NCBI GenBank assembly: GCA_030704615.1
Contig: CM060732.1
Location: forward strand, 59,892,001-59,956,000
Direction of reading: 5' to 3'
Source: Takakia lepidozioides
Lineage: Eukaryota > Plantae > Bryophyta
DNA: 64,000 nucleotides
The notes beneath the pieces are model-generated. The model was given only the letters and a program-made list of their open reading frames with translations, ran no database searches and was not told the origin of the DNA. This document shows positions 1,028 through 63,082 of the stretch, one piece after another. Within the stretch, counting starts at the first letter, position 1. Every line of letters starts with the position of its first letter. Made by a program: the position numbers and the translations under genes.

Positions 1028-1437
1028 TCAACAGCTACCTCGCTTGTGTTTTTCCTCACCCACCAGCATGAATCTGCCTCCCGCAACGCGCTCTCTCTCG
1101 TCGCAGACTGAGTAATTGTCTGATTTCAAAAGAATCTGCTCTAACAGGGTTCTAGGGTTTGTTGCCCGATTTTTCATCCATTCAAATTTTGGATGAAAAA
1201 CTTATCATCCACCCCTAAACGTTTTCTTTACGTTTCTTTTTTTTTACACCAAGGAACGTCAGAAACGACGTTCTCCTAAGTCACTTAGAGCGTTCACTGT
1301 GACTGGGATGTAATTTCAGACGGGATACTCTGAGACATGTGTCAAGGTCATGGAATCCCTGGGGCTTGGGTTCTACGGTGTGGGTGCTTAACGGCGTAGT
1401 CCTTTGTGCACTCAGAAGACCCCAAGACTGTGAAAAC

Positions 1438-1808
1438 TATTGGAGGTTTACAGTACAGCTTATAGTTAAACACTACATTACATTTAGTATAGCTTGTAGT
1501 TAAATACTTCATTAGGTATGCTGACTTACTATTCATCTGTGCTACTACTTAGTGTTAAATACTTCATTAGGTTTAGTGCTACTACTTAGTGTTCTTCGAT
1601 TGGTTTCGATGCTTCTTGATTCTTACGTTAGGTGTTCATGCGTGGTAGTCTCTGCTAGGGCTCATGTAGCTTGATTGTTTACTACTGCTCGATGACAGTT
1701 GATTAGTGTTAAACATCTGATAAATGACTCTGCAGTAAATGTTTTGCTAACATTGTAGGCAGTTTCCTTGAATGCTCTTGATTGATAGCACGTTCTTGAA
1801 ATTCTAAA
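1438..1808 (+). repeat. Copia 5' LTR
   Basis: Direct repeat of the sequence starting at 5321; ends immediately before the PBS. Confidence 0.85.
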
Positions 1809-1937
1809 GGTTATGGGCCCACTTACATAAAGTGAACTAGAATTTTAGTGTCAAGTTTGTTGCTACTGTGCGTACATGTAGTTACATGTGTGTCAGAATT
1901 CATCTCAGTTTTAGCAATGTTTTTGAACGGAAGATTG

Positions 1938-4900
1938 ATGGATCTTTCACGAGAGTTGAACAATATTGAGCGGTACTGTGGTGATGATTTTCACCTCTGA
2001 AAAATGCAAATGCGGGCTATATTTGTGGCCAGGGATCTAATTGAAATCGTCGAAGAAACCGAAGAGGCCAATGATGACAAGCAGGCATGGCAGAAGTGTG
2101 ATAGTATTGCTGTCAGCCTCCTCTATCAGTCGATTGAACGGAAATACTTACGGCAACTACAAGGTTGTGAAACCTCTGCTTAGATCTGGGAGCACTTAAA
2201 GATTAATCATGAGCATAAGGCATCCGAGAATGTTCAGTCTCTTCAGACAAAGTTCTTCCTATCGAAATTATCAGAGAGACAAGATATTGCTTCTCATATT
2301 GGAGAGCTAGAGTCTATCATCCGTCGTCTTAAAGACCTTGGAGATCCCGGATTCAGTGAGAGTCTGTTAATGACCAAGCTTATCAGCAACCTGCCTAGGA
2401 ATTATCGACATCTCAAGACTACTTGGAATAGTGTACCGGATGAGAAAAAGACTCTTGAGATGCTCACATTCCGCATCCTCAAGGAGGAAATAGCTCTCAA
2501 AGAAGATGAAATAGAACTACACGCTTTCTATGCTCACAAGAATAGTGGAAGCGGTGGGAGTGCCGGACAATCTGGAAGCAATGGGGGTGCCAGACAATTT
2601 GGAAGTAGAGTGAGTGGTGCAAAACCATATCTCACACGAACAGAAAAAGCAACGGCGACTTCACATTGAAAGTCTTAAGCAAAAGACGCGTTGCGGAAAC
2701 TGTGGTGAAGTCGGTCACTGCCACCGTGAATGCAAGCAGCCTAACAAAGAACGGGCTCCCAAACCTGAATCATCGAAACATCATACGTTTATGGCTCACC
2801 TGAGCACGGAGACCTCTAACGATCCTACAAATGTTTGGTTCGCTGATAGTGCTTGTTCACAACACATGACAGATAAGAGACACTGGTTTAAGAATCTAAA
2901 ACCGATAGATGGACCAGGATGGAGAGTTCATGCAATCAAGGATATCTCTACTGCTGTTGTGGCTCACGGTGACATTGTGTAAATAATGAGTGGCACACGG
3001 GAGTTCTGCATGACGTGCTTTACGTTCTAGATTTGCGGAGAAATCTATTTTCCATTGCTTCAGCCACGTAGAAAGGTATCATTTACACAACAGACAACCA
3101 TGGCTGCACTCTTAGTCATCGTGGAGAAATCATCATGACTGGATTACTTTTTGCAGAGCACATGTATGAATTGCAATTGGAGGTCATTGTGAATCCATCA
3201 ACAGCATTAATTGCTAACACCATTGGCGTTCCTACGAAGCTGGACAGTACCCAAAGTATCACTACTTGGCACAACAGACTGGCTTATCTCAATCATGCAA
3301 TGATTAAGGAGATGGAGTCTAACAAATTGGTTGACGGCCTCATCATTTCTGGTGAGAGAGATAAAGAATTCTGCACTGGTTGTGTACTTGGCAAAAGTCA
3401 TCGTTCACCATTCCCTATGCATCCTATTCGTGACAAAGCCACGACACCGGGATTCTTGGTTCATATGGACATATGTGGTCCATTTCCTCCTTCCCTAGGA
3501 GGTATGAGATACTTCATACTTTTCAAGGATGATTGCTCCGAATACCGTATCCTCTATTGCATGAAGTCTCGCGATGAAACGCTTCTTTGTTTAAAGCGTA
3601 TGTTTCATACCACAAAGAGAGAGACGGGTAATTCTATCACTATTCTCGGGACTGATCGTGCACGAGAATTTGAGTTCAAGAAGTTTATGAACGATGAAGG
3701 GATTCATCATGAATTAACCACAGCATATACACCCGAACAAAACTCAGTGGCAGAACGTGAAAATCAGACCATCGTCGAGAGTGTTCGAAGTATGTTACAT
3801 TTTAGTGGCATGCCAATTAAGCTATGGGGTGAAGCTGCCTATACTGCAGCATATGTTCTCAATTGCTCGGTGACACACATGATCAACAATGCTACATCGT
3901 TTTAGATTTGGACGGAACCAAGCCATCTATTGCTCACTTGAAGATATTTGGCTGTGAAGGCTATGTTCATATTCCAAAGGAATTAAGAACCAAGCTCCAA
4001 CCTAAAAGTAAGTCCAGTGTCTTTTGTGGCTACGATGATTCATCGAAGGGATATCGTTTTTGGGATAGAGGTACCCAACGTGTTATTGTCAGCAGAGATG
4101 TGATCTTCCGTGAAGACTCTTTTCCGTTTCTGAGCAATCCTCCATCTGAAACCTCTCCATCATGCGTCACTTTGTCTATACCTGCTGACATTGAAACAGT
4201 GGATTCCGATTCTTTGCCAGAAAGTGACAATGCGGACATGTCCACAGCTATGGATTCATTGGCTATGGCTTCCAGTCCTGAGACCTCACATTCTGGTAGC
4301 CCTGAGATTCAACTTGATGCGATCATACCGATTTGTCCGGAGACTCCTCCAATCATATTGTCACCACCTCGCCCTACGGAGTTTATTTTACCTGCGGGTG
4401 ATCTACCAGAAGGCACAGTTCGCTCTCGGCAATTTCCAGTACGTTATGGAGATTGGGTCTCTTATGCCTGTACAACAACTATGGATAATTCTCCTATTGT
4501 TGACCCTGTCGATTATTATCAGGCTATTGATTCCCCACAACAAGCTGAGTGGTTACATGCTATGAGGGAGGAATACACATCCCTTATGGAGAATCAGACG
4601 TGGTCTCTTACTCCATTGCCTCCTAATCGGAAGACAGTGAAATGCAAATGGATATTTAAGGTCAAATATAACTTAGATGGAAGCATTGAGAGGTTCAAGG
4701 CTCGTTTGGTGGCCAAGGGATTCATACAGAAACCTTGTATTGATTTTACTGAAACTTTCGCACATGTTGCTAAATTTGACAGCTTCCGAACCATACTTTC
4801 CATTGTGGCAGCAGATGATATGGAGCTCGAGCAGTTTGATGTCAAGACAACGTTTCTTTATGGAGAATTAGCTGAAGAGGTTTTGTTTTGCTTCTTAACC

Positions 4901-5302
4901 AGGGCCCAGTGGCATGGGGCTCACGCAAGCAATGGTAGTAGGCAGAATATGTCGCTGCATGCACAGCAGCAAAGGAAACTATGGTTAACGAGACTTCTGT
5001 TTGATTTGGGATATCCACAAATTGATCCAACTGCTTTGCATAGTGATAATCAGGCAGCAATTCGTCTGGTACATAATCCAGAATTCCATCGGCGGACGAA
5101 GCATATTGACCTGCAGTACCACATGATTCGCGAATACCAGTCCAATGGTGAAATTTTGATTTCATACGTTTCTACTCACGATCAGCTGGCTGGTGTGTTT
5201 ACGAAAGGCCTTACTCCATACAAGTTCAATCGCATGTGCACTCTGTTAAATTGTCTTGCAGTGCACTCAGCTGCAGTTGAAGTGAGAGAATGTAGTGTTT
5301 GA
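1938..5302 (+). pseudogene. Copia gag-pol polyprotein pseudogene
   Basis: ORF pieces 2370-2669, 2614-2982, 3135-3905 and 3863-5302 carry Gag, ZnK, PR, IN, partial RT and RH motifs. RT jumps from YGELAEE straight to RNase H-proximal sequence near 4880. Confidence 0.9.
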
Positions 5303-5320
5303 ATTCCAGCTGAGTGGAAG

Positions 5321-5687
5321 TATTGGAGGTTTACAGTACAACTTATAGTTAAACACTACATTATGTTTAGTATAGCTTGTAGTTAAATACTTCATTAGGT
5401 TTAGTGACTTATTATTCATCTGTGCTACTACTTAGTGTCTTCTTCGATTGGTTTCGATGCTTCTTGATTCTTACGTTAGGTGTTCCTGCTTGGTAGCCTC
5501 TGCAGGGTTTTGATGTTCTTGTTTGGTAGTCTTTGCTAGGTTTTGATGCTCATGTAGCTTGATTGTCTACTACTGCTCGATGACAGTTGATTAGTGTTAA
5601 ACATCTTAATATTTCAAGAACGTGCTATCAATCAAATGCATTCAAGGAAACTGCCTACAATGTTAGCAAAACATTTACTGCAGAGTC
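5321..5687 (+). repeat. Copia 3' LTR (distal ~77 bp inverted)
   Basis: Matches 1438-1718 directly up to ~5606. 5611-5687 is the reverse complement of 1726-1802. Confidence 0.85.
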
Positions 5688-5699
5688 CTTAAAATACTC

Positions 5700-6750: not shown

Positions 6751-7603
6751 CTTGATATAAATCAGTTTTGAGTCATCCAAATGTTTTTGGTTCCTGCCAT
6801 GTATTTGTATTCTATGTTTTGCTGTATTTCTAATAGATTTTCAATGCAGTGCAGTGAATCAATAAATTTAAATACAAAACCCACTAATTCACATTTATAT
6901 AGATATAAAATAAATAATCAAAATAATAAAAATTAAAAATTAAATAACAGTAATAAACCAAAAAATAATAAAACCAAATATAAAAAAAAGCCTCCCCAAT
7001 TTATTTATTTATATTTTATTTATTTAAATATAAAATATATTTTATATTTATGTATATATATATACTAGGTACACGTCATGCATCCACGTCATACTATACG
7101 TCATGCATTCATGTCATAATTCATTTAAACCACTTTACTACACGTCATAACCACGTCATAGCCACGTCGCATCCACGTCATACTGTGCTACCTACACGTC
7201 ACCCCCTAGGTTTTACTGTCACATTTCACTGTCAGAACCTGGCATCTGGATTCGACCGCTTGACTGAAACAACTCGACCTTTGTCATGCATGTTTGATTA
7301 TGGAGGCTGGGAGTAAAAATGTCGCAAACAACTAAAAAATGAGTCAAATACAGAGTCAAAAAGCCCAGTTTGTATTGTAGTTGTCGTGCGCATACATATC
7401 GCTACAGAACTACATTGCTGTCCAAAACCACACAACACATGTGCACACCACACACTATTATTCCACTAGTCCAGCCACTAGTCCAACCATTAGGCTACAA
7501 CTAGTCAGTCACTAGGCTGCCACTATGCTGCCCACTATGGCAGTCACTAGTCTACACAATGATAAAGAAGAAGAATACAAGCACAAGCTCATGCGAGCTC
7601 ACA

Positions 7604-9741
7604 GCATCCCACAGGAGGCCAGGTCCACAATCCCGGAAAGCATGCGATCATGGGAAGCTGAGCAGTGTGGGTAATGTTGCTCGTGGTTGACCCACCTTGT
7701 TGACCACTGCCAAAGGCGAACGGTCATCGTGTCTCATACGCTGAGACTGCCTCCATGTGTCCAGAATGTTATCCACTGTGAGATGTGCTGGCCGTTGCAC
7801 CCCATCAAATGCACGCTTGAGCAGTGCGGGTGGCATCATGTTAGTCCACCATAGCCGTGGACGATGAGCCTGTGACCCCACTGTAGCTGCATCTAACAAC
7901 ACTGCTGACCCAAGCCACGACCGGACTTGATGCACACTGGCCATCATCCTGGCTCGAGAATCGCCCATCAGTGGCACATTCTCCAAGATGTATGCTGGAG
8001 ATACAACTTGATGAAGCTGCAAGTGGCGCAAAACCCGCACCATCTCCCAAAACAGACCCGACCTCGAGTCTCGCAATCCATTGTCATGCTCGGCTCATGA
8101 ATGCCCTTGGCAGGGCCAACCTGCCACTACCAGATCAATGAAACCAACCCGCTCCAAATCTTGCGCCCCCAGCAACGAAATGTCTGCTGACAAGGCCTGC
8201 TGATATCCACGAACTGCAGCCACCAGCAACAACTCAGGGTACCGCTGCACCAACTGAGCAACATGGCAAAGTGAAATGCGTCGTGCAGTCTCATCCCTCT
8301 CCACATACAGGTAACGCCGAACTCGTACACCTGCATATAACACAGCAGCCAATCTGGTGCTGATCCCGCCAAGCAAGTCCAGAAGACAAATGCTTTCATC
8401 CGGATACTGCCACACAATAGGTGTGGTGTCCAATGGAGACAACTGAGATGGTCCTGGTGCAATCCCCGCATTCTCCTCCTCTCCTGATGGTACAAAAGCC
8501 TCCACCCAGGCTTGTTGCACCCGTCGATCAGCAACCCGCTGCAAATCCTTGCTTGTGGCCCACAATGGAGTCTGAGCAACCATGGCAGGCAACTCTGTCA
8601 TATCATACATGTCATCTTGTTCTCCTGGAGGTATGTCATCCTCTGAATGAGCGTTTCTTTCAAGCAACTCTCCAGGCCAAGTCACTGCAGCTGTGAATGC
8701 TGCTAGTGTCGACATCTTGCCCCGCTGGGCAACTGCAACTCCTCCTATAAACGTCACAGGGAGCTGCACACGCCGGACCTCCCCTGACTGCCATCTAGAC
8801 CTATAGGAAGCTGACTCCTCCCAAAAATCCAGGGTGAAGCCCATGGGATACAACATTGCCCCACCAACCAGGACATCGTACGAGACCACGTTTGTCACAA
8901 TGGCCTTGGCTTGCATCACTGAGCCATCTGTAGGGTGATCTGGCCGTAGTCTGATAGCCAACTCATGTCGTGTCATGCCCCGAGCGTGCTCCGATCCTCC
9001 CAGAGACGTCTGTATCTGGAAAGGACAAGGCTCCATATCCGCCTCCATGAGGCCCAAGCCTGCAATAGCAGCTCTGCCCAGCATCAATGGCTGAGCTCCT
9101 GAGTCCAATAAGACCCGCAGTGGCCGGTACCTCTTGCCTGCCGGTCCACTCAAACAGAAAATGCCATCCTGGTTGTCTAACATGACAACTCCAGGTGTCA
9201 CCATGGCGCGCTCAATGGCTGGCCTAGCTGACAGCTCCATCAACCTGGCAGCTGCAGCTTGCCATGGTGCCGCCGTGGCAGTCTTGACCCTCAAATCCGA
9301 GGATCCCTCCGGCACTACACCTCCCACTATCTCCGCAGAAGATGAAGTAACCTCCCCACTCTCACAGAGTATAGCTGCCAGCCTGAACACCTCAGCTGGT
9401 CTTACCCCCGGCGTCGCAATCATGGTAGCCGAGAACAATGGAGCCTGACACACAGATGTGGCCGCTCCCAACAGCACATTAATTGCCGTAGCCTTGGCAA
9501 CACTAGGTAGTGGTGCTGCCCGTGTAGCTCTCCCCAATGGCGTAGTAACCTCCGCCTCGGTAACAATCGGGCGAGAACTAGGTGTCATGGATGGCGTCGA
9601 CACTGTCTCCGCCAATGTGAATGACTGAGGGAGCCTAGCCTGACGGCTTGCCTCCCCACGCTGTGGATCCAACTCCACCTCTGCAACTCGTGGCTCAGGA
9701 ACTCGTGCTGTTCCTCGAGTCACGGCTGCAGCAGACTCCAC
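7604..9741 (-). pseudogene. Retroviral-type aspartic protease fused to a C5-cytosine DNA methyltransferase (DNMT3-like motifs), C-terminally truncated
   Basis: Protease VLLDSGAQPLM...YDVLVGG. MTase motif I LDLLGGIS, II YVERD, III DI, IV GWPCQGHS, VI ILENV, VIII AHRPRLWWTN. ORFs 8095-9741 and 7648-8076 are in frame across a single TGA. Confidence 0.88.
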
Positions 9742-9870
9742 CTACACTAGTGGTAGTGCTGCTCCGCACATGAATCCCATGCCTACCATATCTCCTCCCT
9801 CAGGAGCAGGAGGTGGACCATCCGGCCTTGGAGCCGGTACCACCTAAGTTGTAGCCATGGCAGCGAGCCT

Positions 9871-11298
9871 CTACTCTAGCTGCTGAAGCCGGTTGGCCAT
9901 GCCTTGGTCAACACGCTGACCTCCGTGTCTTTGGCCATGTTGAGCTTGCCCTTGGCCTACACCCCGTGCCTGGCCACCTCGTCCTCTTTGGGCTGCTCCC
10001 CCTCGCCCCCGGCCACCATTGTTCCCTTGGAACTGGCTTGGGTGCAACTCGGGATGCAAACCATAACATTGGGCCTCTCCATGCCCGTGCTTACCACAAT
10101 GCCCACACTGCAACTGTGCAGGCTGTGCATGTGCCGGCCCTTTGCCTCCCTCTAGACAATCCTTCTTGACGTGGGGTCCTCCACATGTCCAACACACCAC
10201 ATCCGCCCGTTATTGGCCTGCAAATGAAGGGAGAGACCCTTGCATCTGAGGTCCTCTCTGCCCTTCCCTGAGCTTCACCTGAGCCCCCTTATTGCCTTGA
10301 GCACGTTGAGGTAGTGGTTGGCTAGGAGCACCACTACCCCGTGGTGTCTCCTTAGCAAATCCCACCATGACCACTCGTTCCTCCACCATGTTGAGCTCTA
10401 TCCGCTCTGCCAGCAAAAACACATTTGCTAAGGTGGGTTGGGCCGCTTGTAGGAGAGTTGCATCCCGCACCCTTCTCCTCAGCTCCTTGTCCAATATCCC
10501 ATACCAAAATTGGACTGCCTGAGCTTCCGTAAACCCTTGGGTTACATTTATCAAGCGCCTCATGTGAGTGAAAGCCTCCATCAAGCTCTCAGTAGGCTTC
10601 CTTTGGAACTCTTGCAAACTCCGCAACTTCTCTATCCTCACCCCTTGGTAGTTCCCTCTCAACTCTTCGAAGAACTCCACAACAGGGTTGAAGGCAGGCA
10701 TGGGTACTGGTGCTGGTGCGGTAGTGGCTTGGGTGGACGTCGTAGCTACGGTACCACCAGTCCTACTAGTCCCACTTCTGTTTGCTGAAGCTGCCGGTGC
10801 AGCGGCAGGTGTAGCCACTGCCCTTGTGACTCTAGTGCCCCTAGTGATGGAGACATAGTCGGGTGACCAGTACATCCTCCACTCCTCGATCTCAACCTCA
10901 TGCCCCCGCCTGAACTCATGATAATCATCCATAGGCGGCCCCTCAAGGTGCTGAAACAGCCCCTTCCATGCCATGAAAGGCGTAAATAGTTGTGGATTGC
11001 GCATTTGCTACAAATCACACCAACTATCAAACTCTTGGATAAAATCATCCAACTCGATGGTGCCCACCGCCCCAGAGTACCTTCGTGGCCCCTTGGTAGC
11101 TCCATATATCTCCTCCATTGTGTCCCACAACAATGGCAAGGAAACAACTTGCACCGCCAGTATGAGTCCTCCTGATTCACAATCCGAAATCAGAACCTTC
11201 TGTAAAAGACATAGGAGGTGAAGGTGGCCTAAACCGCACACCTCGTCTCGTGTACCCACTAGTATCGCTAGTGCTCGAACCGGCACTGTCCCCAGCAA
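9871..11298 (-). pseudogene. Retrotransposon Gag with two zinc knuckles
   Basis: ORFs 11008-11298, 10210-11004 and 9871-10200 are in one frame. Gag-like segments ELDDFIQEFDSW and LQEFQRKPTESLMEAFTHMRRL; knuckles CWTCGGPHVKKDC and CGHCGKHGHGEAQC. Confidence 0.8.
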
Positions 11299-12039
11299 CT
11301 AGTGGCACCTCCGTGTTGACAACTCAACCAGTCATGAACATGTCCCTAACCCCCTCTCCAAAAAGGTAACCGGGTAGAGAACCTGTTGCGGCTTATGGTT
11401 TGGAATACTAAGTTCCTAACATAGCTTACACTTGTACCTGCATCCACCGCAAGCACTCCTATGGTTGGCTGGTCATCACCTCCAACCTTACCATAGGAGA
11501 AACAATGATGGTCTGGCTGGTCATCACCCCAGCCTCACCATCGACAGCATGCTCTAGGAGTGGCCGGTGATCAAATCCGGACCAATCACCTATAAAAACA
11601 AGCACCCACACAAAACTAGCATGGCGCACAGTCAAGCATGCAGGTATGGAGGGGATCCAAACACAAGAAATCAGAGCGACAACTCCCCCACACTAAAAAC
11701 AACTCCACGGTGTTGCTCCTGCAAGGACACCCCAGCCCAAACCCGGACTGACTCTTGCCTCCACCTGCGGAAAGGTCTTGGCCTAATGAGAGGGTGGAAA
11801 CTACGAGGAAGAGAAGCTAAAGCAATGCCTAACCCCAGCATGCCCTCATCCCAACACTCTTCCTCTCCTCTCTTCCCTCACTTGCATGACCATGGGAATA
11901 TCATGAAGATATTCCTCAAACCGCCCTCCACGAGCTTCAAAATTCGGCCTTCAAGACCACATGCCAGTCCTTAGGCAGTCCACTAGTGCCTCCACGAGTC
12001 AATACAGGCCGTCCACAGGTCAACACGGGCCACCACAGA

Positions 12040-13350
12040 CCCAGCACAGGCCCACACAGCTCACTGGTCACAACCATCACAGCCCCACACAAGCCACAGC
12101 CTGTCACAGCCCTACGCAGGTCACAGGGTCATAGGCCGTAGCCTATCACAGCCCGTCACAGCCCCAAAGGCCACATGTCATAGCCTGTCACAGCCCATCA
12201 CAACCCCAAAGGCCACAGGCACAGCCTGTCACAGCCCTACAAAGGTCACAGGGTCACAGCCCCAAAGGCCACAGCCCCTCACAGCCCGTCACAAACCCCA
12301 CAGGCCACAGGGCACAGCCTGTCCCAGCCTGCCACAACCTGTCACAGCCCCACAGGCCACATGGCACAACCTATCACAGCCTTACATAGGTCACAGGGGT
12401 CACAGCCCAAAGGCCATAGCCCGTCACAGCCCGTCACAGCCCCACAGGCCACAGGGCACAGCCTGTCACAACCCGCCACAGCCCATCACAGCCCCACAGG
12501 CCACATGGCACAGCCTGTCACAGCTACACAGGTCACAGGGGTCACAGCCCCAAAGGCCACAGCCCCTCACAGCCCGTCACCGCCCCACAGGCCACAGGCC
12601 ACAGCCTGTCACAGCCCCTCACAGCCCCACAGGCCACAGGGCACAGCTTGTCACAGCCCGCCACAGCCCATCACAGCCCATCACAGCTCGCCACAGCCTG
12701 TCACAGCCCCACAGGCCACAGGCCACAGCCTATCACAACCCCTCATAGCCCGTCACAGCCCCACAGGCCACAGGGCACAGCCTATCACAGCCCCTCACAG
12801 CCCGTCACAGCCCCACAGGCCATTGGGCACAACCTGTCACAGCCCGTCACAGCCCGTCACAGCTCGCCACAGCCTGTCACAGCCCGTCACAGCCCGTCAC
12901 AGCTCGCCACAGCCTGTCACAGCCCCTCATAGCCCGTCACAACCCCACAGGCCACACGGCACAGCTTGTCACAGCCCCACAGGCCACTGGGCACAGCCTG
13001 TCACAGCCCGTCACAGCCTGTCACAACCCCTCACAGCCCGTCACAGCTCGCCACAATCTGTCACAGCCCGTCACAGCCCCACAAGCCACAGGGCACAGCC
13101 TGTCACAGCCCCTCATAGCCCATCACAGCCCCACAGGCCACAAGGCACAGCCTGTCACATCCCCTCACAGCCCGTCACAGCCCCAAAGGCCACTGGGCAC
13201 AGTCTGTCACAGCCCGCCACATCCTGTCACAGCCCCTCACAGCCCATCACAGCGTGTCACAGCCCGTCACAGCCCCACAGGCCACAGGGCATAGCCTGTC
13301 ACAACCCACCACAGCCTGTCACAGCCAGTCACAGCTCCACAGGCCACTCA
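12040..13350. repeat. Minisatellite of a ~10-bp unit (CACAGCCCGT and variants) in the leader of the DNMT element
   Basis: Many tandem copies of CCCGTCACAG/CCTGTCACAG/CCCATCACAG interleaved with CCCCACAGGCCACAGGG. Confidence 0.95.
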
Positions 13351-13769
13351 TGACAGTTTAGCCATTTCTCCAAGGGGTTTAGCCACGCCAAGCTAGGGTT
13401 TGTGTCTCTTGGACTCTAGGCTTCTTTGCACCGAGCTATGGCGGCTGTGAAGAAATCAGCAAGGTATTCTTGCTCTTTCGGCTCCTACACACCACCAATA
13501 GTAGTCCTAAGCCATGAGGAAGATGGTTGCCACAAACCAAGCCTTCTTTCTCACTTAGACTCCCCAAACACGCCACTAAACTCAATGGCAAACAACCAAG
13601 CCTTGCTGGTTTCCAGCCCTTGTGAGCACTCATTCAAGCGTTTCCTTTGGCCATAGCATCTGTCTTAGAGCCTATTCCAGCCCCCTACACCTGCCACTTC
13701 AAGAGCCATGCTCTATCTAGGCTTGAGATTGAAACCCCAACTCAGAACACGCTCTACAAGTGTCGGACT

Positions 13770-14200
13770 GTCACATAAGAGCAGATCAGCCCCTTATCTT
13801 CTCTTCTAGTTCTCTAAAGCTTGAAAACAAAAGCCCAATGGACTGAAGGCATGCTCCACACATGCCCCACTCTCACCACTAGAGAATCAGCCCCTTTGCT
13901 TTCTTTCTTGCACCCACCAACCTAAAAATACACGCTTCAGTGGGCTGGAAGCATGCTCCACACATGCCCTACAGGGAAACCAGCCCCTTCATTCATTTCT
14001 TGCACTCCCAAACCTGAAAGTACAAGCCTTCAACAGGCTGAAAGCATGCTCCACACATGCATTGCTCTCACATAAGGGAAGTCAGCCCTTCCCTCTTCCT
14101 TGCTTGCCCTCCAAGCTTGAAGATGGAAGCTTCAATGAGCTGAATACATGCTCCACACATGCAACCTCTTCACACAAGAGGTATCAGCCCCCTATCTTGG
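13770..14200. repeat. Degenerate ~100-bp tandem repeat in the element leader
   Basis: CATGCTCCACACATGC recurs at ~13850, 13953, 14045 and 14147, each followed by TCAGCCC and a pyrimidine-rich run. Confidence 0.75.
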
Positions 14201-14557
14201 CTCCTTAGCTCCTTGATGCTCTCTAAGACAAGACTAAGCACTCCACAGCCCTTGCCAAGCTCATGAAACCCTAAGGCTTACATTTCCAGCCACAAGACAC
14301 TCCTCTTGTGGTGCAAGAGCTCTTCTTCCAAGCTCTGAAACCCTAGGTGCACATTCCATGGCCTTGCCGCACCTCTTAGTTCCTATTCCAGCCGTGCTCT
14401 TGCCATGACAAGAGCCCTCTCAATGCTGAAGCTCGAGATTGAAACCCAATCTCAACATACTCCACAAAGTGCATTGATTTGCCCCAATACAAATCAGCCC
14501 TTTCGCTTGGTCTTGCAATCCTGCAGCATGGTGCTTTCATCTCTGAAGCTGAAGATC

Positions 14558-15298
14558 GAATGCCAAGGTCTACCACCTCGTAACCCACATCGCCTCCGCT
14601 TCTAACAACCAAGAGCTCCACGGTGCTCCTTGCATAACAACCTGGTTTCTCTCATTCTCAAGCAAAAACCACAAGTGCTACAACTAACTCGTATCTGGCA
14701 CTCACAGATACGAACCCATCTTTCTCGAGTGATAAAGAAGAAGAATACAAGCACAAGCTCATGCGAGCTCACAAAGCTGAAGCATAAACTCATGCATATA
14801 TAAACTCGTCACTCAAATACAAGTCAAGCCAAATGCACCCCACGCCATGAGGAATCCACACTACGGCGCCATAGCTAGGCGCGGTGAGGCTCAACTCGAT
14901 AAAGATGAGCCTCCCGCGCTTGCCGTGAATGCCAAGGTCTACGACCTTGTAACCCACATCGCCTCCGCTTCTAACAACCAAGAGCTCCACGGTGCTCTTT
15001 GCATAACAACCTGGTTTCTCTCATTCTCAAGCAAAAACCACAAGTGCTACAACTAACTCGTATCTCGCATTCACATATACGAGTTCATCTTTCTCGAGTG
15101 ATAAAGAAGAAGAATACAAACACAAACTCATGCGAACTCACAAAGCTGAAGCATAAACTCGTGCATATATAAACTCATCACTCAAATACAAGTCAAGCCA
15201 AATGCACCCCACGCCATGGGGAATCCACACTACGGCGCCATAGCTAGGCGCAGTGAGGCTCAACTCGATAAAGATGAGCCTCCCGCGCTTGCCGTGAA
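14558..15298. repeat. Tandem duplication of a 369-bp unit (putative terminal repeat region of the DNMT element)
   Basis: 14558-14926 and 14927-15295 are near-identical. Part of the unit reappears at 7560-7603. Confidence 0.92.
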
Positions 15299-16827
15299 GA
15301 TAACCACTCCAGGATCTAAATCTGCCTTGACCCCTGGATTGACACTTGGGCCAATCCCAAATGTCAATATGTAAAAGCTAGCTATTTCCTAGCTAAGTTC
15401 ACACTAGTGGTAAAATAACTTGACATAGTGCTTCTACCTTAGATCCTAATCCACACCTGTCCCAGCATCACTGCAAAGCACTATTCATATCCAAAGCCTA
15501 TGTAACTTGGATCGCTACCCCGTCTCCGTTACACTCCTACATGCATTCCTCCCTACCCAACCCGATACCAGCCACACCACCTCCCAACCCACAACTGAGA
15601 ATTAGGTCCCCCATACCACTAGACAATATCAATGTCTGCCAAGCTAACTTTCAACAATATGCAGCAGATAATATTCTACATTTATCCAACATCATGGCAG
15701 ATGGCACTCAAAACCATAATAACATCAACTGGGCCAGAGCTAACGACACCCTCCAAATCATCATGCAACTGTTACAACTCACCTGACACCGCAAGCGTTA
15801 TTGCCACATCTTCGGCACCTAAGGGCATACCTTAGACTCACCGCACTAAGCAAAATGGATGATATCTTACTCGCACACAATAACGGAAATGGACCTCCCA
15901 CCTTAATACGTATCACACCATCCAAAGAGCCCTCATAGCCGCACCCAAACCTGATAATGTCAATACGTACCTAGAATGACATCTAGATCCATGCATCACC
16001 TGACTAAGCATTGTCCGTGCCTACGAAACCCTCCTCCCCCCCTAGGACACATCAAGCCTCTCGGCTTGGATCGGCGACATTGCTAAGATTGGTACCCCTC
16101 TATGTTACCAATTTCATAAAAACTGAAGCAGATTTGAAAATGCAATTTACGTTTAAATGAGCCCTGAAGCCCGTTTTGGGCCTGGTGGGCGTGTTAATTT
16201 TGCAAGATTTAGAGAGGGCTTTGATGCATGAGTCATACATGGTGCGTGTGAAAGTGTCATGGATTCGGTCGGAGCTGTAACCTCGTTTGCTAAGGGATAA
16301 ATCATCAAATTTTTTCCAATGGGTAGTGCGTGACCTTGCATGTGCATTTGTAGATATGACGAGTTGGGGTTAGACAATTAGTGGTGGTAGGAGTGTAAAT
16401 GTCTTTGGCTTGAGCCCCATGTTTCCTAATTTGATGTCTACGGGTTTTGTGAGCCTGTGGTCCAGTCTGTGTTTTAGATAGTCTAGTGGGGTTTAAGAGT
16501 AGGGTTGAAGATAGCTTTTTGTGCCTTTCTAGGTTGCTCATGTAATAGTTGGCAGAAAGATGTAATAATTTTTTTATGGTTGTATGTAGCCTTTTGTTCG
16601 GTATTAAGTAGACGGCTTTCTTGGCGTCTCCCCTGTCGTGCACTGCCAGGATCGGGCAACTGATGGCCCTAGTTTCGAGTTAAAGCAAAGTTGTCTCATC
16701 AGGCAAGCAAGGGGGTTAGGTTTTGATGAAGGTAATTCTGTTTTTTTTCATGCCAAGATTTTTTCACACGCGTGTGTGAGAGTTATAGTTAGGGGATCTA
16801 ACCAGGTTTGACCAGGTGGCATCACTA

Positions 16828-17788
16828 GAGTCTGCCCTGTATAAATGTTACCTCTATAAACGTTAAACTACCATAAATGTTAAGAAAATTTTACTCCCCT
16901 ACTTGTGCGCACTAGCAAATGTTAAGTGTTATTTGTTAACAATTGCTTACTCCCCTCTTTGTTAATTTGCTCTGAATAAATGTTAAGTGCTCCATAAAGG
17001 TTTTAGCCAACCGGAGATATGCTCCATAATTATAAATTCCAAACTAGATTAGATTATGATAAGATTACATCCTAAAACATAACCAATCAGAAGACTAGAA
17101 AGTAAGTGGGAGGTAATACTAAAGTGTTCAAATCAGAAGCAAATCAGTTACCTTGATAAAGATAAATATAAAGTTTCTTTAACGTCCAATGAATTTACAG
17201 AGCCTACTACTCAGCACCAAGGCCATCGAGGGCCCAATGGACGGTCTGAAGGAACATGTTGAAGGATTGAACCCAGGATCTGAACCTAGGTTATGCACAT
17301 GCAAGGCACAAACACCCAACCATTGGGCTACATGCTCAAGTGCAAGGAGTGTATGTTCCACATTTCGACACTTGACATGGAGGTTGTTTTTGAGAGACGA
17401 GACCACATATGTGTTGATTGCACTTGTGTTAGATGTGTTTGCAAGTAGATGGTAGCATTCAAAGATGCCAAAAAATGGCCATAGCTACAATTTCTCAATG
17501 TTTGGAACAAAGGCCTTATGACGTTATGAAAACTATTTTAGCCATGAAATGCCTAGAGAAAGAACTCGATGATATGCATAGAGATAGTTATCATACCACA
17601 ATCGATTCATATTTCCTACCCATAACTGAATAACTCAATACAATTACACTTTGTTTCATAAGTGTTGTTACCTTATGTAAATGTTAATGTGTTACAGTTA
17701 ACCCTTTCATAACTGTTGATGTGTTAACCTTGTCTAAATGTTATTTTTCTCCTACTCCCGACTATTAACATTTATCCAGGGGAGACTC
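16828..17788. mobile_element. Non-autonomous TIR element with TA flanks (Tc1/mariner-pogo-like)
   Basis: Left end TA|GAGTCTGCCCTGTATAAATGTTA and right end TAACATTTATCCAGGGGAGACTC|TA form a 21/23 inverted match. Internal TAAATGTTA subterminal repeats. Confidence 0.75.
17252..17337 (-). pseudogene. tRNA-Ala(TGC)-like pseudogene or SINE head
   Basis: Minus strand GAGCATG...CATGTTC 7-bp acceptor stem, A-box TAGCCCAATGG, TTGCA anticodon loop, and two B-box-like GGTTCA(G)ATCC motifs. Confidence 0.5.
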
Positions 17789-18143
17789 TACATGTGTTGG
17801 CCAAATTTGATAGTTTTGGCTTGTTGGATGAGGGATCCCAAGGGGATGAAGCGTGTCAAATCTCGCCTCAATTGGAGTAAGTGATCCAGTCACTCAAATC
17901 TTTAAAAAACTGCTAAAAAATGCTATGTTTCTCCAATGGGTCCCACATTCACCGGTGGTGTTTTTCGAATGTGAGGATGATTGCCCTGGAAATTGGTAGG
18001 TGGGTGCAGGAGGAAGATACTCACATAATGTGTAGTCTATTTCTAAAAAAGTCAATTCTCTAAAAGTTACACCATCTTTTCACTGCAAGGGATCCTATTA
18101 TTTTGAAAAAGTCAAACTATGGCACTGTGCGTTTAAGGGTTAA

Positions 18144-18931
18144 CCCCTAAAGGCCGGCGCGACCTGAATTAGGTCACAGCCATTTTCACTTTTCATTCAG
18201 ACACTTTTTTCATCCACTTTACTGCGCCCCCAAAAACCCAAAACTCTACCCACCTACGATTTTTCAAAGATCAGGGGTACCCCCAAATAGATGGATCTGA
18301 GGCCACCACTGCAATTGACCTGTCGACATGGATTGCCGACAGCCCTCAGATGGAAGTGACTAGAAAAGTCACAAAAAAGCCCATCTACAGAGCAGTTTTT
18401 GGTTTTTTGGAAAACAATTTGGGGATTCTTCTTGCCCTGTGGACCCTGCAGGATACCACCAGAGGAAACTTGATTTTGTAAAAAACTCCAGGAGCTATGT
18501 GGATCTTTTTTTTCCAATGTAGTTTTTCTTCCATTGAATCCCTTGATTGCATATACAAAGGCGCCATATTGTTTTGGGGGAATTTGGCCCTCAAATTTCT
18601 TAAGGACATGTGTAACCCTGCAAAGATTATGACTGAATTGGTCCGGCCCCCAGAAAAAAAATATCTGTCAGGGCAAATTTGCTTGGTCAAACAGAATTTT
18701 CCCTTAAAAACTTCCTTAGAGTTGAAAAAAACCCCTGGTAATTTATTATAATCTCCCAATGGGAACAGTCAATTCTTCCCAAATTTGCACAGTACCTGCA
18801 TCTAGTAGGTAACTGCCACTTAGTAAGATTCATTTCCGTGGATGAACTCCTGCTAGCAGATATGGCTTGGGAGGTGTCAGTGGGTCCCATTTTTTAGGTG
18901 GACCCCCAAAAACACTCCCGGCGCTTAGGGG
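18144..18931. mobile_element. Non-autonomous TIR element with TTAA target-site duplication (piggyBac-like)
   Basis: TTAA|CCCCTAAAGGCCGG ... CCGGCGCTTAGGGG|TTAA, with TTAA at 18140-18143 and 18932-18935. Confidence 0.7.
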
Positions 18932-21673
18932 TTAAGGGACTCATGAAGCTTTCTAGGACCCTTCAACAATTTCCATTCTCTAGAGTCAACGTATAGTCAA
19001 CCGCAGAGCTCTACCCTTGCTTGAGTAAGGGCCAGGTTCATGGGCGTGGATCCAAGCAACTGCCTCCAAAGAGGGAATGGCCCCTTTAAAACCTCAAGGG
19101 GGTGGTTCCATGGAGACCTTTCCATTCAGCCCCTCTTAAATCATGGAACGAATTGCCATGTGGGCCCATGATATAGTAAATGATAATTAATTTAAAATTT
19201 TGATGAAAATGTCAAAATTCACTCCCTCTCCTAACACATCTCTCTTAGTCTGGATGAAAAAAAAAAATATTATGTAAGGCTTCCCGGTAAGAAAAAGACA
19301 AAATAGTTTGGATGCTGCGATTCTGTTTGTGAAGGGAGGGTTTTTTGCGCCCTTTATCACGGGGCGATTCAGCAGGGGCGCCCCTTAAAAATATTCTCCC
19401 TTAGCCACTACAGCCTCTTTAAAACCCAAGGACCTTGGCACTAATAAGGCTCTCATACCTCTAGGCTTTTTATTTTATTTTATATTGAATATGTCGCAAA
19501 ACCTCATAAAACCATGAATCGATATTTCTGTTGGTAAGCCTTATCACCTCTCAATAGAGATCCCCTGGTATTCTCAAGTGTTATTTGAGTGATCCCATAT
19601 TCGATATAGACCACTTGAATCTCCTAATAAAGCTGCTCAATACACTGGAAGAATCTTCCAAAGTCATCTGATTAGTTAATTAAAATACAGCTAGAGAGCA
19701 AATTTTGTGGAATGAAAACTTAGTCATGCTCTATTCCACCTATTCACATCAAAGAAACAACAACAAAAAAAAAATGACCATTTTTGCTACATGACCTTGG
19801 TGTTCTCTTCCCACAAAGATATTTACAAACAAGCTCCATAGAGGCACCATATTGTAACATAGGTATTTCCAGAATTTACAAATAGACACTTCACTAACCC
19901 TGCCAACTTGTATTCTCGCCACATGGACAGCTGTCAAGCCGTGGGAGTCGGGGGTGTCTCTGGGTAGCAAATGGACAGGTGGTCAGTGTAGGGATGCACA
20001 GGTGTCGGCAGTGGAGGAGCTGACCAAATTCTGTATGGGTTATTGTGCAGGTCCAAAGCGGCAGGCTACCAATGGGGGCTGACACTACGTTTTGGGGTAG
20101 CTTCTGTACAGGTGTCGAGCGCTGGGAGTTAGGGTGTTCTCTTGTGGGTACCAAGTGGACAGGTGAGGGATGCACAAGTGTGCGCCCTGGAGGAGCTGAG
20201 CTGAGGGCAGATGGGCCCCGCCACCTGGGTAGCCGGTCACTTTAGGGCCAACACCATTAAGCTGTCCTACCCTACCCTCCAGGGACAGTCCCCTTTAAGA
20301 GGCCTCATCCTCGATTACGGACTACGGGCTGTAGCCTGTGTATAGCCTGGGACACGCTACTGTCTGACCTAAATTTACTGTACGTTATCCTTCTTTTCTT
20401 AAAGTTTTTAGATTGTGGTATTTAAGAAATAAGAATTCTGCATGGTAGAGGTACGGTGCCCGAGAAGATACGGTTGCGTGTACGCACATGCGGAGTTAAC
20501 CCACGAGGGCTGGTGTGAACAACAAGGCTTCGGCCGACGTACGTCGTGGCAGGACCCGGCTAAAATGCGGGCCGGCCGGCTCCAATGTCGCGAAGCCGGC
20601 CGCGCCGGCATCCGGCTGGCAGCCAGCAAGCCGCACTATGTCCGCTGGATGGATGAATACTGATACATTCCTCTGGATAAGTCGATGGATGAGGGTCGAG
20701 ATATCATCCAGTGGATGGCAAGAGCTTGCTATATCCGTCATTTGGTTGATTTATTTATCACATTTTCTGTCATTCCGTATTCTGCAGGGTCGTGGCACGC
20801 ACGAATCGGAATTCCACTGCCGTGCGGTGCGGTGTCGGCCTGGCCGCATGCCAGGTGCCCGTCTCGGATTAGGTCTGGTTAGAGGAAGTTTCATTCTATT
20901 TCTTTTCATCCCCCTTCTAGCCAATAAGAACCCTTCCCGGGAATCTCTGTCTCCAGACCGGTGACAGACGGTCATAGATGCGAATATCACTGGCTATAGC
21001 CCGCGGGAGACCCGGAGCAGCCGGTCGCCCTCAGATCCTCAGACATTGGAACTTGGAGCCCCATCCCGAGGACCTCGTGGTGCAGGATTTTAATCGGTGG
21101 ATAATAGGTATAACTGATGGGCGAAACATGGAACATGCGTCATTCTTCCGGTTTTAGGTTTTGGACCGCTGGATAAAGAGGCCAAGAACTGCTCGCTTGC
21201 GTCCTTGCGAGAGCAGTGTCGTGCTGTTTTTGCTCTGTTGCCGTCTTCTTGGCACAAGCAAGAGGAGCGGATGGAATCACGCATCAATTCAAGGCTTGTG
21301 TGTGTATGAAGCTTGGATTACTTGTTGCTTCTTGGCACAAGCAATCCAAACTCATCAAACCACGCATCAAATCCAGGGCTTGGGGCTGCGTGAAGCTTTG
21401 TTTGTACATCCTCTTCTGTCTCTCTCCTTCCGTCTTTTTTTCTATCTTCTGCCTCTGATCTCTCGTCTTCTTTTCTCAGAAAATGGTAAGATTGAATTGA
21501 TCACATTATCAATTGAAGGGCTCTGTGCGTGGGAAGCTGGCTCTGTCGCCGGGCCTCTCGTTCCTTGACTGCAGGCCCAACGAGTGGCTGGCGCCGCTCC
21601 TTTCTGACTCTTTCTCAACGTTTCCAGGCCAGGAGCAGAAATTCCCCTAAAATATGCGGGTATTCGCAGAAAT

Positions 21674-24600
21674 ATGGGGAACAAGATAACGCGCAGGAGG
21701 CCGACTATAGAAGATCGCTACACCCGTCCTCAGGGCTTGTACCCGCACAGAGATGTGGATCAACGCAAGCTTCGTCGCCTTATTCTTGATGCGAAGCTGG
21801 CGCCTTGTTACCCTGGAGGAGAGGAGCCCGCAGTGGAACTGGAAGAATGCCCCATCTGTTTCCTGGTATGCTCATTGGACCTTCCTCTTGTCGAATTGGA
21901 CTTATCTCAGGCGTCTACGGCCAATTATCTCATTTCCTTACCCCGGAGCATAGAAGGTGGGGACCATTTCATTGAACTTGCCGAATAGGTGCCAGTAATT
22001 ATTGTGGCATATGTCGCGTCTTCTGTAATGAATTCGATAGGATTTCCGTCGTCACTATGTGGAAAGGGATGGCGGAAAAAATTCACGGCTTGGTGGAGTA
22101 ACGTGCGTTATCAGCTTGTTTCTTGGTATAAGCTCTCAAAAACTGCTGAATGTACCCCTTAGTTCGATGGTAGAGTGGGTCACGGAAGTATTGGTGGAAT
22201 GAACCTTGACCAGTCTTCAAGTCTTCTCTGGTGCACGAGGATACCAAATTCTGCATGACTCATTGTTCGGCAAGTGTAGATGGGATGTGGAGGTATACCT
22301 CCTGGAAGCCCAGCATATATTGTACTCATAAGACGTTGTTTGCTCGTAGCCTTGTGGCCATTGACCCCGCGCCCAGTTTGAGCGGGAACAAAAGGGACAG
22401 AACCTACCTCTGTCAGGGGCTGACGTTGGTAGTAAGACTTACCTCCATATAAAGAATTAATCCGGTTTTTCCAGATATCCTCTGGAAATCCCTTCACACA
22501 AGCATCAATCTGCTGTGTGTGATTTGCCCAAAAACTAGGCCTCAGGAGGGCCTGGGATTTTGGCTCAGCCTCGAGACTTTCAAAGTTGGTAAACAGGGGT
22601 ACAGGCACAATTCCCTTAATAGATTTGAAGAGAGCGTCTCTTTGGTGAGAGAACCCCGGACAGTGTATCAGAAAATGAATACTGTCTTCAGATTGCCCAC
22701 ACAACGGGCAATTGCACTCTCCCTTTCCTCTCTGCTTCTGTTTGCTGTTCAAAGGTAGGCTTCCTGTAGTACTGTGCACTTTTGTAAAGGCGGCGATTCA
22801 AGGTTAATTATTGCTTTGGATTAGGTACGTGTGAGGTGTTTTGGAGTACAAGGGGCTTATTTAATGGTGCATTAGTGAAGCTCATTACATAGCAGCCTAT
22901 TGATTCTTATTTCAAATTCCTAATTTGTTTTTGAAAGTGGAGGCGAGTGTTTTGGGACAATGGCCAATTAATACAGCAGCCAAGCGTCAATGCAAATGGG
23001 ATGCATGGTGCACCTTATATAGTGTTACAATGCACACATTTTTATCATGCTTCCGTTGCCAAGGATGGCGGAAGAATGGGAAATGAGGGAGTTGTGGAGT
23101 CTTCTAGCTGTGTCCACGGGGTCGGCTAGTTTAGGGTTATCAGATGGCCATATATGAGGAGTTGTAGGTCAACTCAGGGCATACTTAAGGGAGTTGTATA
23201 TGGTCAGATTTTGCACAGGTCGTCATCCCTCCAAAGGAAAGTTATGAGTCCTTCCATAAGTAGATGTGCCCAATCCCGCGCTGGGAGACCGTTACTTTTG
23301 GGCCCGCACATGGCCTAGTTTTGTTAATTTTTGGGACAGTTGTAGGTGCACATCTTGTGCACTCAGGGCAACTTAAAGCACATATCAAGGGATTATATGG
23401 CATTATAGTGCCGAGAGTGGGTAGACCCTTGAGGTCATCCAAGATGTCCTCCCCCATGTCACAGACTGGAAACAAGTTCAGGGAAGTTTTCTGCCTAACT
23501 TCATTTTCATCAGACAATCTCATGGCAACAGACATGGCTGAGGACACTACAGCCTCTAAGTCAGATTTATCCAGCAGGGTCAAGACTTGCGGATCCAGGT
23601 CCAGGTCCTTGAGGATCTCTTCTACTCTCTTCTGCCAGGACTTAGCCTGTTTGACAGGGCGGTCCTGTTTCCAAGATATAGAGTCGATTAACTTAGGATA
23701 TCTGGTGTTGGGTTTAGGGTTTAGGGTGAAGCCCAGCATATAGTGAGTGAGATAGAGTGTTGGGCTCATCGCCCGCTTCTCACACCAGATTCTCCAAAAT
23801 CAAATACAGAGCCAATGCAACATGAAGTGAATTGATATACCTGTAACAGCAGGTCCTCTGGGAAGAAATTAACAACCAAAAAACTAACCCTAAATTTCAT
23901 AGAGCATACACATTTTGCCATTTTGTGTTGAAAGTTCATTCCAAAATGTTAGTAAAAGCAGGATGGCTTGTAATGTCACACTGGGGTTGGGGTAAATTTT
24001 TGAGTATCATCACCTTTTCTGAACTTTATGTCAGAAGAGCACATGTTGAGTGGCTTTCTGTCCGGAAGATGTCAATCTCACAGGTTTTAGAAGATAGTAT
24101 CAGTTTTGATCACGTAGGGGGCCCAGTCAGACAGAGAGATCCAAGAGGATGGCAGGATGGGCTGATGACCTAGTGGCATGGTGGTTTTTGGAACAGAATT
24201 ATCCAAGTCTTAATCGATCCAAATGCTGCTCCAAGGGCATTTGCACTGGTGATGCCATTGCTCCCTTTTCCTTCATTGGAAACATTTTGCAACTTCCTCC
24301 TCTCTCTCTCTCTCCCCTGTCTAGGCTACGGCAAATTCTCTCCCGTCTGTTCCAAGGTAAGTCAAACTGCCGGTGTCAGCCCCTGACAAAGGTAGTTTCT
24401 CTTTGTGTTCTGCTCAATCTGAGCGCAGGGCCACAAGGCTTCGGCAAACAACGTCTTCTGAGTACAAACTATCCTTACAACTTTTGTTAACAGAGTTTTA
24501 CGTCATACTGAAGAAATGTGTGGAGTTTGTGGCGAAGTTCCATGGTGATAAAGGAGAGGGTAATTTGCAGTATGCAGGATCAGTGCAATTGTCTGCATAT

Positions 24601-55258: not shown

Positions 55259-57221
<1,963 letters not shown>

Positions 57222-61239: not shown

Positions 61240-61450
61240 GGTCTTATGCCGCAAGGTACTTTGTAATGCGTGTGCAAGCCTGACAGCTTTTAAGAAGGAC
61301 AAAGAGATCCAGGTGACATCTGAAATTGCACCAGATGTCATTCTAAACATTGCACTGTTGGAAATGTATGCCAAATGTGGGTGCAACAATGCAACAAATG
61401 GGAGTGTTTGACAATGTGGCTGAATGAGATGTGGTGTTTTGGAGTGGCAT
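61240..61450 (+). pseudogene. PPR-protein fragment, degraded
   Basis: Translates in pieces as NACASL..PDVILNIALLEMYAKCG..VFDNVAE*DVVFW. Confidence 0.6.
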
Positions 61451-62900: not shown

Positions 62901-63082
62901 CATAACCAATTTGTCATAAGCTGCATCACGAATTGCATATATGTTTTAGTTTGCCTACAATTTTGTGCGATATGTAATGTAAGCAAACGTCTTGCATGTG
63001 CATCTACAAAGAATATTAAGATGCATGAGACAAAATACTTATAATCGATGTGCCATAGAGCCATAGGCATTGTCACATTATA

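Follow-up and report, generated by a model that had tools for sequence, protein, structure and literature searches.

A dead copy of a methyltransferase-bearing Ty3/Gypsy-type family with land-plant relatives and split terminal repeats

The window analyzed here is the whole 64,000-nucleotide (nt) stretch of Takakia lepidozioides contig CM060732.1 between positions 59,892,001 and 59,956,000. On its minus strand, from 15425 to 7382, lies a dead member of a high-copy Ty3/Gypsy-type retrotransposon family whose elements carry a DNMT3-like C5-cytosine methyltransferase (DNMT) of their own; this member has also suffered an internal deletion. The identity and architecture of the element are hardly in doubt. 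It runs from TGTCAAG to CACGACA and is flanked on both sides by ACTA, a 4-bp target duplication. Its coding part is a single minus-strand frame (11118-7604) for Gag, two zinc knuckles, a protease and the methyltransferase, with 7 stops and 0 frameshifts. The sequence-only reading from which we started had joined five minus-strand open reading frame (ORF) pieces into one frame without a frameshift, and this is borne out. All five lie on that strand in a common frame, as do two further short pieces (9744-9870), and over 7603-11121 the coding frame has 7 stops versus 34-61 in the five other frames and a mean of 41 (minimum 25) in shuffles. The same reading had placed the polyprotein at 7604..11298; the element is larger than that. 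Coding begins not at 11298 but at the Met at 11118, which pairs with Met1 of Marchantia Mp_4g09160. From this Met to the break, the read-through frame (P0003, with X at stops) aligns with Mp_4g09160 at 53% identity over 1184 columns, without a frameshift.

The motifs quoted at the outset are all present in the translation: two CCHC-type knuckles, LLDSGA, LDLLGGIS, GWPCQGHS, ENV, and AHRPRLWWTN. The capsid-like part of Gag (10350..11118) is interrupted by one stop (11008-11010) and is followed by the two knuckles (10066..10194) and by the aspartic protease (8750..9175, with LLDSGA at 9094-9111). Gag and protease profiles, which had been proposed as a check, stay under the Pfam cut-off in the window copy (Retrotrans_gag E=0.043), and both domains are assigned by similarity to relatives, among which L040 matches Asp_protease_2 (E=2e-4). 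The methyltransferase remnant (7604..8421) carries motif I at 8359-8382, the PC motif at 8098-8121, ENV at 7975-7983, and the RxR block at 7840-7869. The single ORF pieces fall short of Pfam cut-offs (E=0.0013 for PF00145), and the read-through translation (X at stops) gives the anticipated PF00145 match (E=1e-11, 45 bits for a cut-off of 22). The remnant is truncated at 7604, where its last two conserved blocks are deleted; two stops lie inside it (8095-8097 and 7648-7650), two conserved motif-I positions deviate from the family, and the motif set I-X is thus incomplete. The 64-kb window has no match to the family's reverse transcriptase (RT), RNase H or integrase, the copy keeping only Gag, protease, and DNMT. 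Because of the stops in the enzyme, the altered motif I, and the loss of the enzyme's end together with RT, RNase H and integrase, the copy is dead. Compared with other copies in run X1 over 7480-11950, it has A/T where they have G/C at 145 places and the reverse at 78, an excess as expected from the decay of methylated cytosines.

The ends of the element, also on the minus strand, are built in an unusual way. On the left, the ACTA duplication (15426..15429; the sole ACTA+TGTC among 28 TGTC in 11122-20000) is followed by repeat A1 (15099..15425, 327 nt), which starts with TGTCAAG, the left att site, and ends in TTTATCA. In the Sphagnum-like family the length of repeat A ranges over 324-339 nt; L040 has one of 362 nt. 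The primer-binding-site position (15083..15098) adjoins the end of A1 and lacks TGG. A site within A1 (15264..15279) is complementary to it at 14 of 16 positions and is the likely transcript 5' end, with a putative function in self-priming. A 369-bp tandem duplication (14558..15298, copies 95% alike) comprises the 3' part of A1 and the start of a long 5' leader (11119..14557), which contains tandem arrays of 10-, 42- and 52-bp units at about 12139-13348 and of 93-bp units at 13888-14060. On the right, the methyltransferase abuts the final 44 nt of repeat A2 (7560..7603, identical to 14730-14773), which are followed by repeat B2 (7382..7559, 178 nt, its last 19 nt 95% alike to B of L045), ending in CACGACA, the right att site, and by the second ACTA (7378..7381). 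Position 7603 is a loose end at which other contigs run on into repeat A. The window copy was originally an A1..B1-A2-B2 insertion, and an internal deletion later fused the methyltransferase to the end of A2, with loss of the end of the enzyme, RT, RNase H, integrase, B1, and all but the last 44 nt of A2. An Rfam scan of 7100-16000 gave no match.

What the window copy has lost can be read from its relatives. The analysis of whole elements covered 63 of 80 metagenome loci, L064-L080 (17 with weak or short matches) being left out. RT lies downstream of the DNMT in 42 of the 63 and the order is different in 1, while the remainder end or are deleted before RT. A search for copies that join the DNMT to RT, RNase H and integrase had been suggested at the outset, and L040 is complete: ORF1 (1369 codons) encodes Gag, protease, and DNMT, and after a single stop ORF2 (1047 codons) continues in the same frame with RT, RNase H, integrase, and a PHD finger (RVT_1, RNase H, rve and PHD by Pfam on L040 and L037). 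The Gag-protease-RT-RNase H-integrase order is present in L040, L037, L022 and others, and the rve match has an intact D-D-E triad in relatives, so that the integrase is of the DDE type. By search scores, the best solved RT relative is Ty3 Gag-Pol (E=4e-98), the next being of the cauliflower mosaic virus type (2e-47). A second architecture, RT-RNase H-DNMT-integrase-PHD, uses the same enzyme family in 45 of 145 proteins classed (L059:828-5789; P0115, P0118, P0139 and others). Its named members are from the chlorophytes Chromochloris, Haematococcus, and Cymbomonas, and the enzymes of this architecture group together in a clade with 99% support.

The stop between DNMT and RT is itself conserved. 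Leaving out 7 of the 42 RT-bearing loci (insertions or duplicates), it occupies a common position in 27 of 27 in-frame junctions and is followed by a Gln codon in 26 of them; a stop is visible in the RT frame at 7 of 8 frameshifted junctions, and the intact Marchantia ORF1s all terminate at the matching position. The bases after it are CAACCA in L022, CAATCA in L037, and CAGTTA in L040 and L041, that is, CARYYA. After UAG, CARYYA is the tobamovirus-type readthrough signal. It is quite probable, judging from this context, that the stop is read through into RT-RNase H-integrase-PHD. Since a conserved in-frame stop separates Gag-protease-DNMT from the rest of Pol, the methyltransferase is likely made and packaged at Gag levels. 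Some facts speak against readthrough: in 26 Sphagnum-like loci the bases are CAACCC or CAACCT, which fit CARYYA at 5 of 6 positions and have a Met two codons downstream, and predicted introns carry database gene models (P0010, P0012, P0043) across the stop, which leaves room for splicing or reinitiation instead. A Met after the stop occurs in some lineages only, and none is conserved. The stop of the bryophyte-clade elements looks derived, as several algal-type gene calls carry DNMT and RT within one ORF without a stop.

The split ends of the window copy recur in these metagenome loci, from which the end structures of the family derive. Two identical terminal long terminal repeats (LTRs) are not present, so that the integrated form departs from a canonical LTR element. 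Integrated copies have instead a full form, A1..purine tract-B1-NN-A2-B2 (L027, L045, L048; L015 is cut by the contig end and L033=L034 is rearranged), or a short form ending after B1 (L011, L016, L017, L025, L035, L053). Elements are bounded by TGTC..GACA, with TG..CA ends, and a 4-bp target duplication, as in the window copy, flanks 5 of 5 relatives for which both ends are available (L017, L025, L027, L033, L045). At the B1/A2 junction, CAYGACA-NN-TGTCA places two att sites 2 nt apart in L015, L027, L045, L048, and the distant L037 and L040. The A2/B2 joints are ragged and vary from copy to copy, with primer remnants: 9 nt of the primer-binding site in L033=L034, and the end of the purine tract in L027. 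L017 starts close to where A ends, at a site that resembles att, and has a duplication to match. The site after A lacks TGG. In 7 of 8 elements, 13-16 of its 16 positions are complementary to a second site, which lies within A, about 25 nt past a TATA-like box where the box is intact; we infer from this complementarity that the element primes its own minus-strand synthesis. A nested solo A-B insertion was ruled out, because the B1/A2 joint is 2 nt rather than a 4-bp duplication and a single duplication flanks the whole. Four additional matches to the A-start pattern proved false. At the left end of L013 (6456-6589) and L014, an inverted copy of the purine-tract region and B adjoins the end of A, which may be the outcome of an aberrant strand transfer.

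A replication and integration cycle can be proposed from these structures. The RNA would begin in A1 and extend into A2. Gag-protease-DNMT would be the main product, with a few per cent of ribosomes passing UAG-CARYYA, so that each particle would contain many methyltransferases per RT. At the site that follows A, the 5' end of the RNA would then prime the minus strand; priming of the plus strand would fall to the purine tract that precedes B1. The outcome would be LTRs of the form B+2 nt+A and a complementary DNA (cDNA) B-A..B-A. Since the primer site and the purine tract define the RT product in this way, the att sites would come to lie inside the LTR as a ready CA-NN-TG junction, and it is there that the integrase would cut. 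End-joining of the raw RT ends, whether ahead of integration (in a 2-LTR circle) or later, would shift B to the right and produce A1..B1-A2-B2. The A1..B1 form could arise from a 1-LTR circle, a double cut, or recombination between B1 and B2. Only A1..B1-A2-B2 could be copied again, its RNA having A at both ends. Finally, the enzyme would methylate CG on the new DNA, which would enter chromatin pre-marked. To this whole explanation (Gag-protease-DNMT, readthrough to RT-RNase H-integrase-PHD, split ends by internal cutting, and cDNA methylation) we assign a probability of about 0.68. Its third part, internal cutting by integrase at att sites within the LTR, is by itself probable, as integrated copies end at att sites that lie inside the LTR. 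If so, it would free a self-priming element from the need for clean cDNA ends.

The primer sites do not all agree with the proposed cycle, complementarity being just 10 of 16 in L025, and the minimum-energy fold of the window copy leaving the primer site unpaired with its partner. Internal cutting also has a rival, which we consider unlikely: RT itself would make the ends, with B1-A2 as an internal template comparable to the internal circle-junction sequence of DIRS-1, extra strand jumps rebuilding both termini, and integrase trimming 2 nt from ordinary linear ends. This would account for the absence of the mirror form, with A-B-A at the left, which is expected from cutting either junction of a 2-LTR circle and was found at 0 of 12 distinct left ends; an internal cut would therefore need a bias. 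The rival would also retain the standard linear route, in favor of which the 2-LTR-circle model was overturned for retroviruses (PMC11054761), and tyrosine-recombinase elements have their repeats in the same order, according to the passages that describe them (PMC6681497). However, with the purine tract ahead of B1 and the primer site behind A, the RT product is set as B-A..B-A, the variable A2/B2 joints with their primer remnants resemble end-joined RT termini, and L017 begins at an internal att-like site. The end structure offers a concrete, testable example in which a DDE integrase would work at an internal junction. Internal cutting would also be a natural case, alive in Marchantia, of the circle-junction route that was proposed and then rejected for retroviruses. 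Split ends would also explain why LTR-finding tools may miss such elements.

The enzyme is of the DNMT3 type. Its profile scores are 73 bits with DNMT3A, 36 with DRM, and 33 with HhaI; DNMT3A is the best solved relative of the window enzyme; and all Foldseek matches listed for the L040 domain, as modeled by AlphaFold (pLDDT 95), are DNMT3 (TM 0.72). A host DRM or DNMT3 gene was ruled out, because the motif order is canonical and not rearranged, and the enzyme is intronless and sits in a Gypsy polyprotein. The catalytic Cys, the Glu of ENV and both Arg of RxR are invariant in an alignment of 36 diverse sequences. The motif set is complete in intact relatives, and 7 of 8 ORF1s checked have all tested motifs intact. 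The enzyme is under purifying selection: comparisons across lineages give a ratio of nonsynonymous to synonymous substitution of 0.10-0.20, and those among decayed sibling copies one of 0.60-0.96.

Whether the substrate is the element's own cDNA, methylated at CG in or from the particle, is in our estimate an even question, with this CG methylation of new cDNA favored over action on host chromatin. The protease may release the enzyme inside the particle, as had been put forward at the outset. In the case of action on host chromatin, which is rather improbable, an active enzyme would target host chromatin or older copies, for example by being freed from Gag and marking the target region, with the integrase PHD reading histones, or by damping siblings and so limiting harm to the host. 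The expected ORF1-level dose exceeds the need of one cDNA and a PHD finger ends Pol, and purifying selection says nothing about the substrate. Yet the domain lies within the polyprotein in both architectures, flanked by protease and RT in one and by RNase H and integrase in the other, which would place it in the particle beside the cDNA, and no free-standing enzyme occurs among the 145 proteins classed, save one prokaryote-type match. It is less probable still that the domain is retained for nucleic-acid binding or RNA methylation, without methylating DNA. As far as the passages on the assay report, the enzyme of the Klebsormidium element gave no de novo methylation in yeast, which counts against cDNA methylation and in favor of a binding or RNA role; however, human DNMT3B likewise failed there, and the authors judged the assay inconclusive (PMC5890265). 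The invariant catalytic residues also argue against such a role, as do a fold and sequence closest to DNMT3 and far from DNMT2. The question of why a transposon carries a transposon-silencing enzyme becomes testable in Marchantia.

The land-plant range of the family is solid. In run X1, 44,107 contigs map to 7480-11950, covering all 30 bins with the enzyme as deep as Gag, the summed depth not being a copy number. Among 51 longer relatives, 24 are named, of which 16 are from Marchantia, 4 from Closterium, 2 from Calypogeia, and 2 from Sphagnum. This upholds the original proposal of a retrotransposon family in land plants with its own DNMT3-like enzyme, placed between protease and RT. Close relatives come from Marchantia (several with intact ORFs), Calypogeia, and Sphagnum, and more distant ones from Coleochaete, Closterium, and Klebsormidium. 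Identity of the window enzyme to element-borne enzymes is about 70%, whereas its match to DNMT3A is weak and local. Klebsormidium KFL_009030040 and chlorophyte proteins were added by a profile search. At 50% identity, 486 clusters score E<=1e-30. Named vascular plants are absent from the matches listed in the relative and profile searches, and IMG/VR yielded only weak prokaryote-type methyltransferases (30 loci, E>=9e-12), which were used as an outgroup. Many loci are near-copies or one locus seen across samples, so their counts are not independent, which tempers the support that such counts give to the proposed cycle. The presence of a single-subunit RNA polymerase (RpoT), two peroxidases and a pentatricopeptide repeat (PPR) tract in the window, and of its enzyme in a 99% clade with those of Marchantia, Calypogeia and Sphagnum, point to land-plant DNA. 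Close relatives do occur in streptophyte algae (the Coleochaete Pol is 64% identical to that of L022), but an algal or contaminant contig, or a one-off captured fragment of a host DNMT3 or DRM, is hardly credible, given that clade and the intron-rich RpoT, class III-type peroxidases and PPR tract, and given an enzyme that is co-linear with Gag and protease over 1184 columns in Marchantia and is covered by the 44,107 contigs as deeply as the rest of the element; one-off capture is refuted.

Several Marchantia gene models (Mp_4g09160, Mp_5g06330, Mp_5g06860, Mp_Vg00370, Mp_Vg00540 and others, in the P0005 cluster) are element ORF1s annotated as hypothetical host proteins, and several such models sit on the V chromosome. 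P0417 and P0108, labeled as a Synechococcales cyanobacterium and a Minisyncoccia bacterium, are likely eukaryotic DNA binned into bacterial assemblies.

Trees were built with FastTree and were not rooted by host DNMT3. In the RT-RNase H tree, all 13 elements of the protease-DNMT-RT order, including that of Klebsormidium, fall on one side of a 99% branch, versus 12 of the RNase H-DNMT-integrase order on the other. The DNMT tree, which is without host DNMT3, has the window enzyme in its 99% bryophyte clade; the basal forks do not resolve, and chlorophyte-type enzymes may nest within. Short branches join the bryophyte sequences into a cluster, outside which lies one Calypogeia sequence. A transcript-derived RT-RNase H-integrase-PHD protein of Coleochaete scutata (P0280) is nearer to the bryophyte elements than Closterium ones are, against the host phylogeny, which would fit paralogous lineages or transfer. 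From these last two placements, several old lineages or transfer are likely. Survival and reacquisition had both been left open at the outset; inheritance from streptophyte ancestors would fit better than new capture, with RT on one side of the 99% branch. That the copy is deleted and dead, that a stop separates DNMT from RT, and that the terminal repeats are split go beyond what had been noticed. More tentatively, and with the odds somewhat against it, a Ty3/Gypsy group spanning the green lineage may have rebuilt the retroviral cycle, with self-priming, a Gag-level DNMT3 pre-methylating the cDNA, and an integrase cutting a built-in att-att junction, only end-joined cDNA giving a mobile copy.

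The nearest known system is KnitGypsy-Dnmt3 of Klebsormidium nitens, described in 2018 (de Mendoza et al., PMC5890265). As far as the passages on it go, it shares the Gypsy domain set, an intronless, non-rearranged DNMT3-like domain in the polyprotein, and purifying selection, and a line of the legend to Fig. 4c gives it DIRS-like repeats; here, A1..B1-A2-B2 is seen in L027, L045, L048, and (deleted) in the window, the Klebsormidium ends being known from that description only. Those passages present it as an acquisition of the K. nitens lineage and contain no mention of an att junction, target duplication, self-priming, or readthrough, whereas the present family spans liverworts, peat mosses, Coleochaete, and Closterium (PMC5890265). 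The K. nitens protein KFL_009030040 has the order protease-DNMT-RT-RNase H-integrase and groups by RT with the bryophyte elements. What was an algal oddity becomes an old and diverse lineage that lives in a model land plant, where its intact ORFs pass for host genes in the annotation.

Among tyrosine-recombinase elements, the passages on PAT, Ngaro and VIPER describe the same repeat order, A1..B1-A2-B2 (PMC6681497), and those on SymbioDIRS-Dnmt3 describe a DNMT3 shown to methylate CG (PMC5890265). The present family differs from all of these in its DDE integrase, TG..CA ends, and 4-bp target duplications. Scans of ORF1 and ORF2 gave no family match to a tyrosine recombinase, two short minus-strand ORFs (166 and 179 aa, in 2 of 5 elements) lying outside the scan. 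Among self-priming Ty3/Gypsy elements, we take Tf1 as the apt comparison. Tf1-like elements have an ordinary LTR at either end and are not known to carry a methyltransferase. With such elements the present family shares the lack of a TGG primer site and a left-repeat sequence complementary to the site after it, in line with the principle of self-priming as outlined in the relevant passages (PMC5006619). Gypsy-7a_cRei and REM1 of Chlamydomonas are likewise green-lineage Gypsy elements with a PHD finger in Pol; the domain legend shows them without a methyltransferase and with LTRs other than A1..B1-A2-B2 (PMC9940879). The EpiLTRs of Cymbomonas and Euglena are also LTR retrotransposons with a cytosine methyltransferase, but one that is sister to DNMT4, together with a DAM domain and a chromodomain, and in the passages concerned their authors set them apart from streptophyte Gypsy-DNMT3 elements (bioRxiv 10.64898/2026.05.21.726589). 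Troyka was rejected as a counterpart: according to the passages on it, it has CG..CG termini and a 3-bp duplication and is restricted to animals (PMC12440569), whereas the present family has TG..CA and 4 bp. In the relevant passages, later papers refer to "streptophytes" and name no land plants, and the literature passages on such elements make no mention of a chlorophyte Gypsy-DNMT3. In the literature covered, with subscription papers, Repbase and supplements beyond its scope, we found no account of land-plant DNMT elements or of this integration route. The DNMT-bearing kind of Gypsy is already known from Klebsormidium; the present analysis adds the conserved stop and the split-end structure.

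The remainder of the window contains the host genes and other repeats. The single-subunit RNA polymerase, the two peroxidases and the PPR tract (PLS-type by eye) lie in 33600-41400 (minus strand) and in 45300-47041, 55400-57221, and 61200-63000 (plus strand). A decayed Copia element at 1435-5690 has gag-pre-integrase, rve and RVT_2 domains. Its LTR-like repeats span approximately 1435-1718 and 5318-5606, and an inverted pair of 85 nt occupies 1723-1807 and 5606-5690. Two minus-strand pieces (22180-22797 and 29215-29718) are 98% alike, have no Pfam match, and are accompanied by related short repeats in both orientations. They share a CPLC..H..HC motif, which we take to resemble the C-terminal zinc finger of non-LTR retrotransposons.

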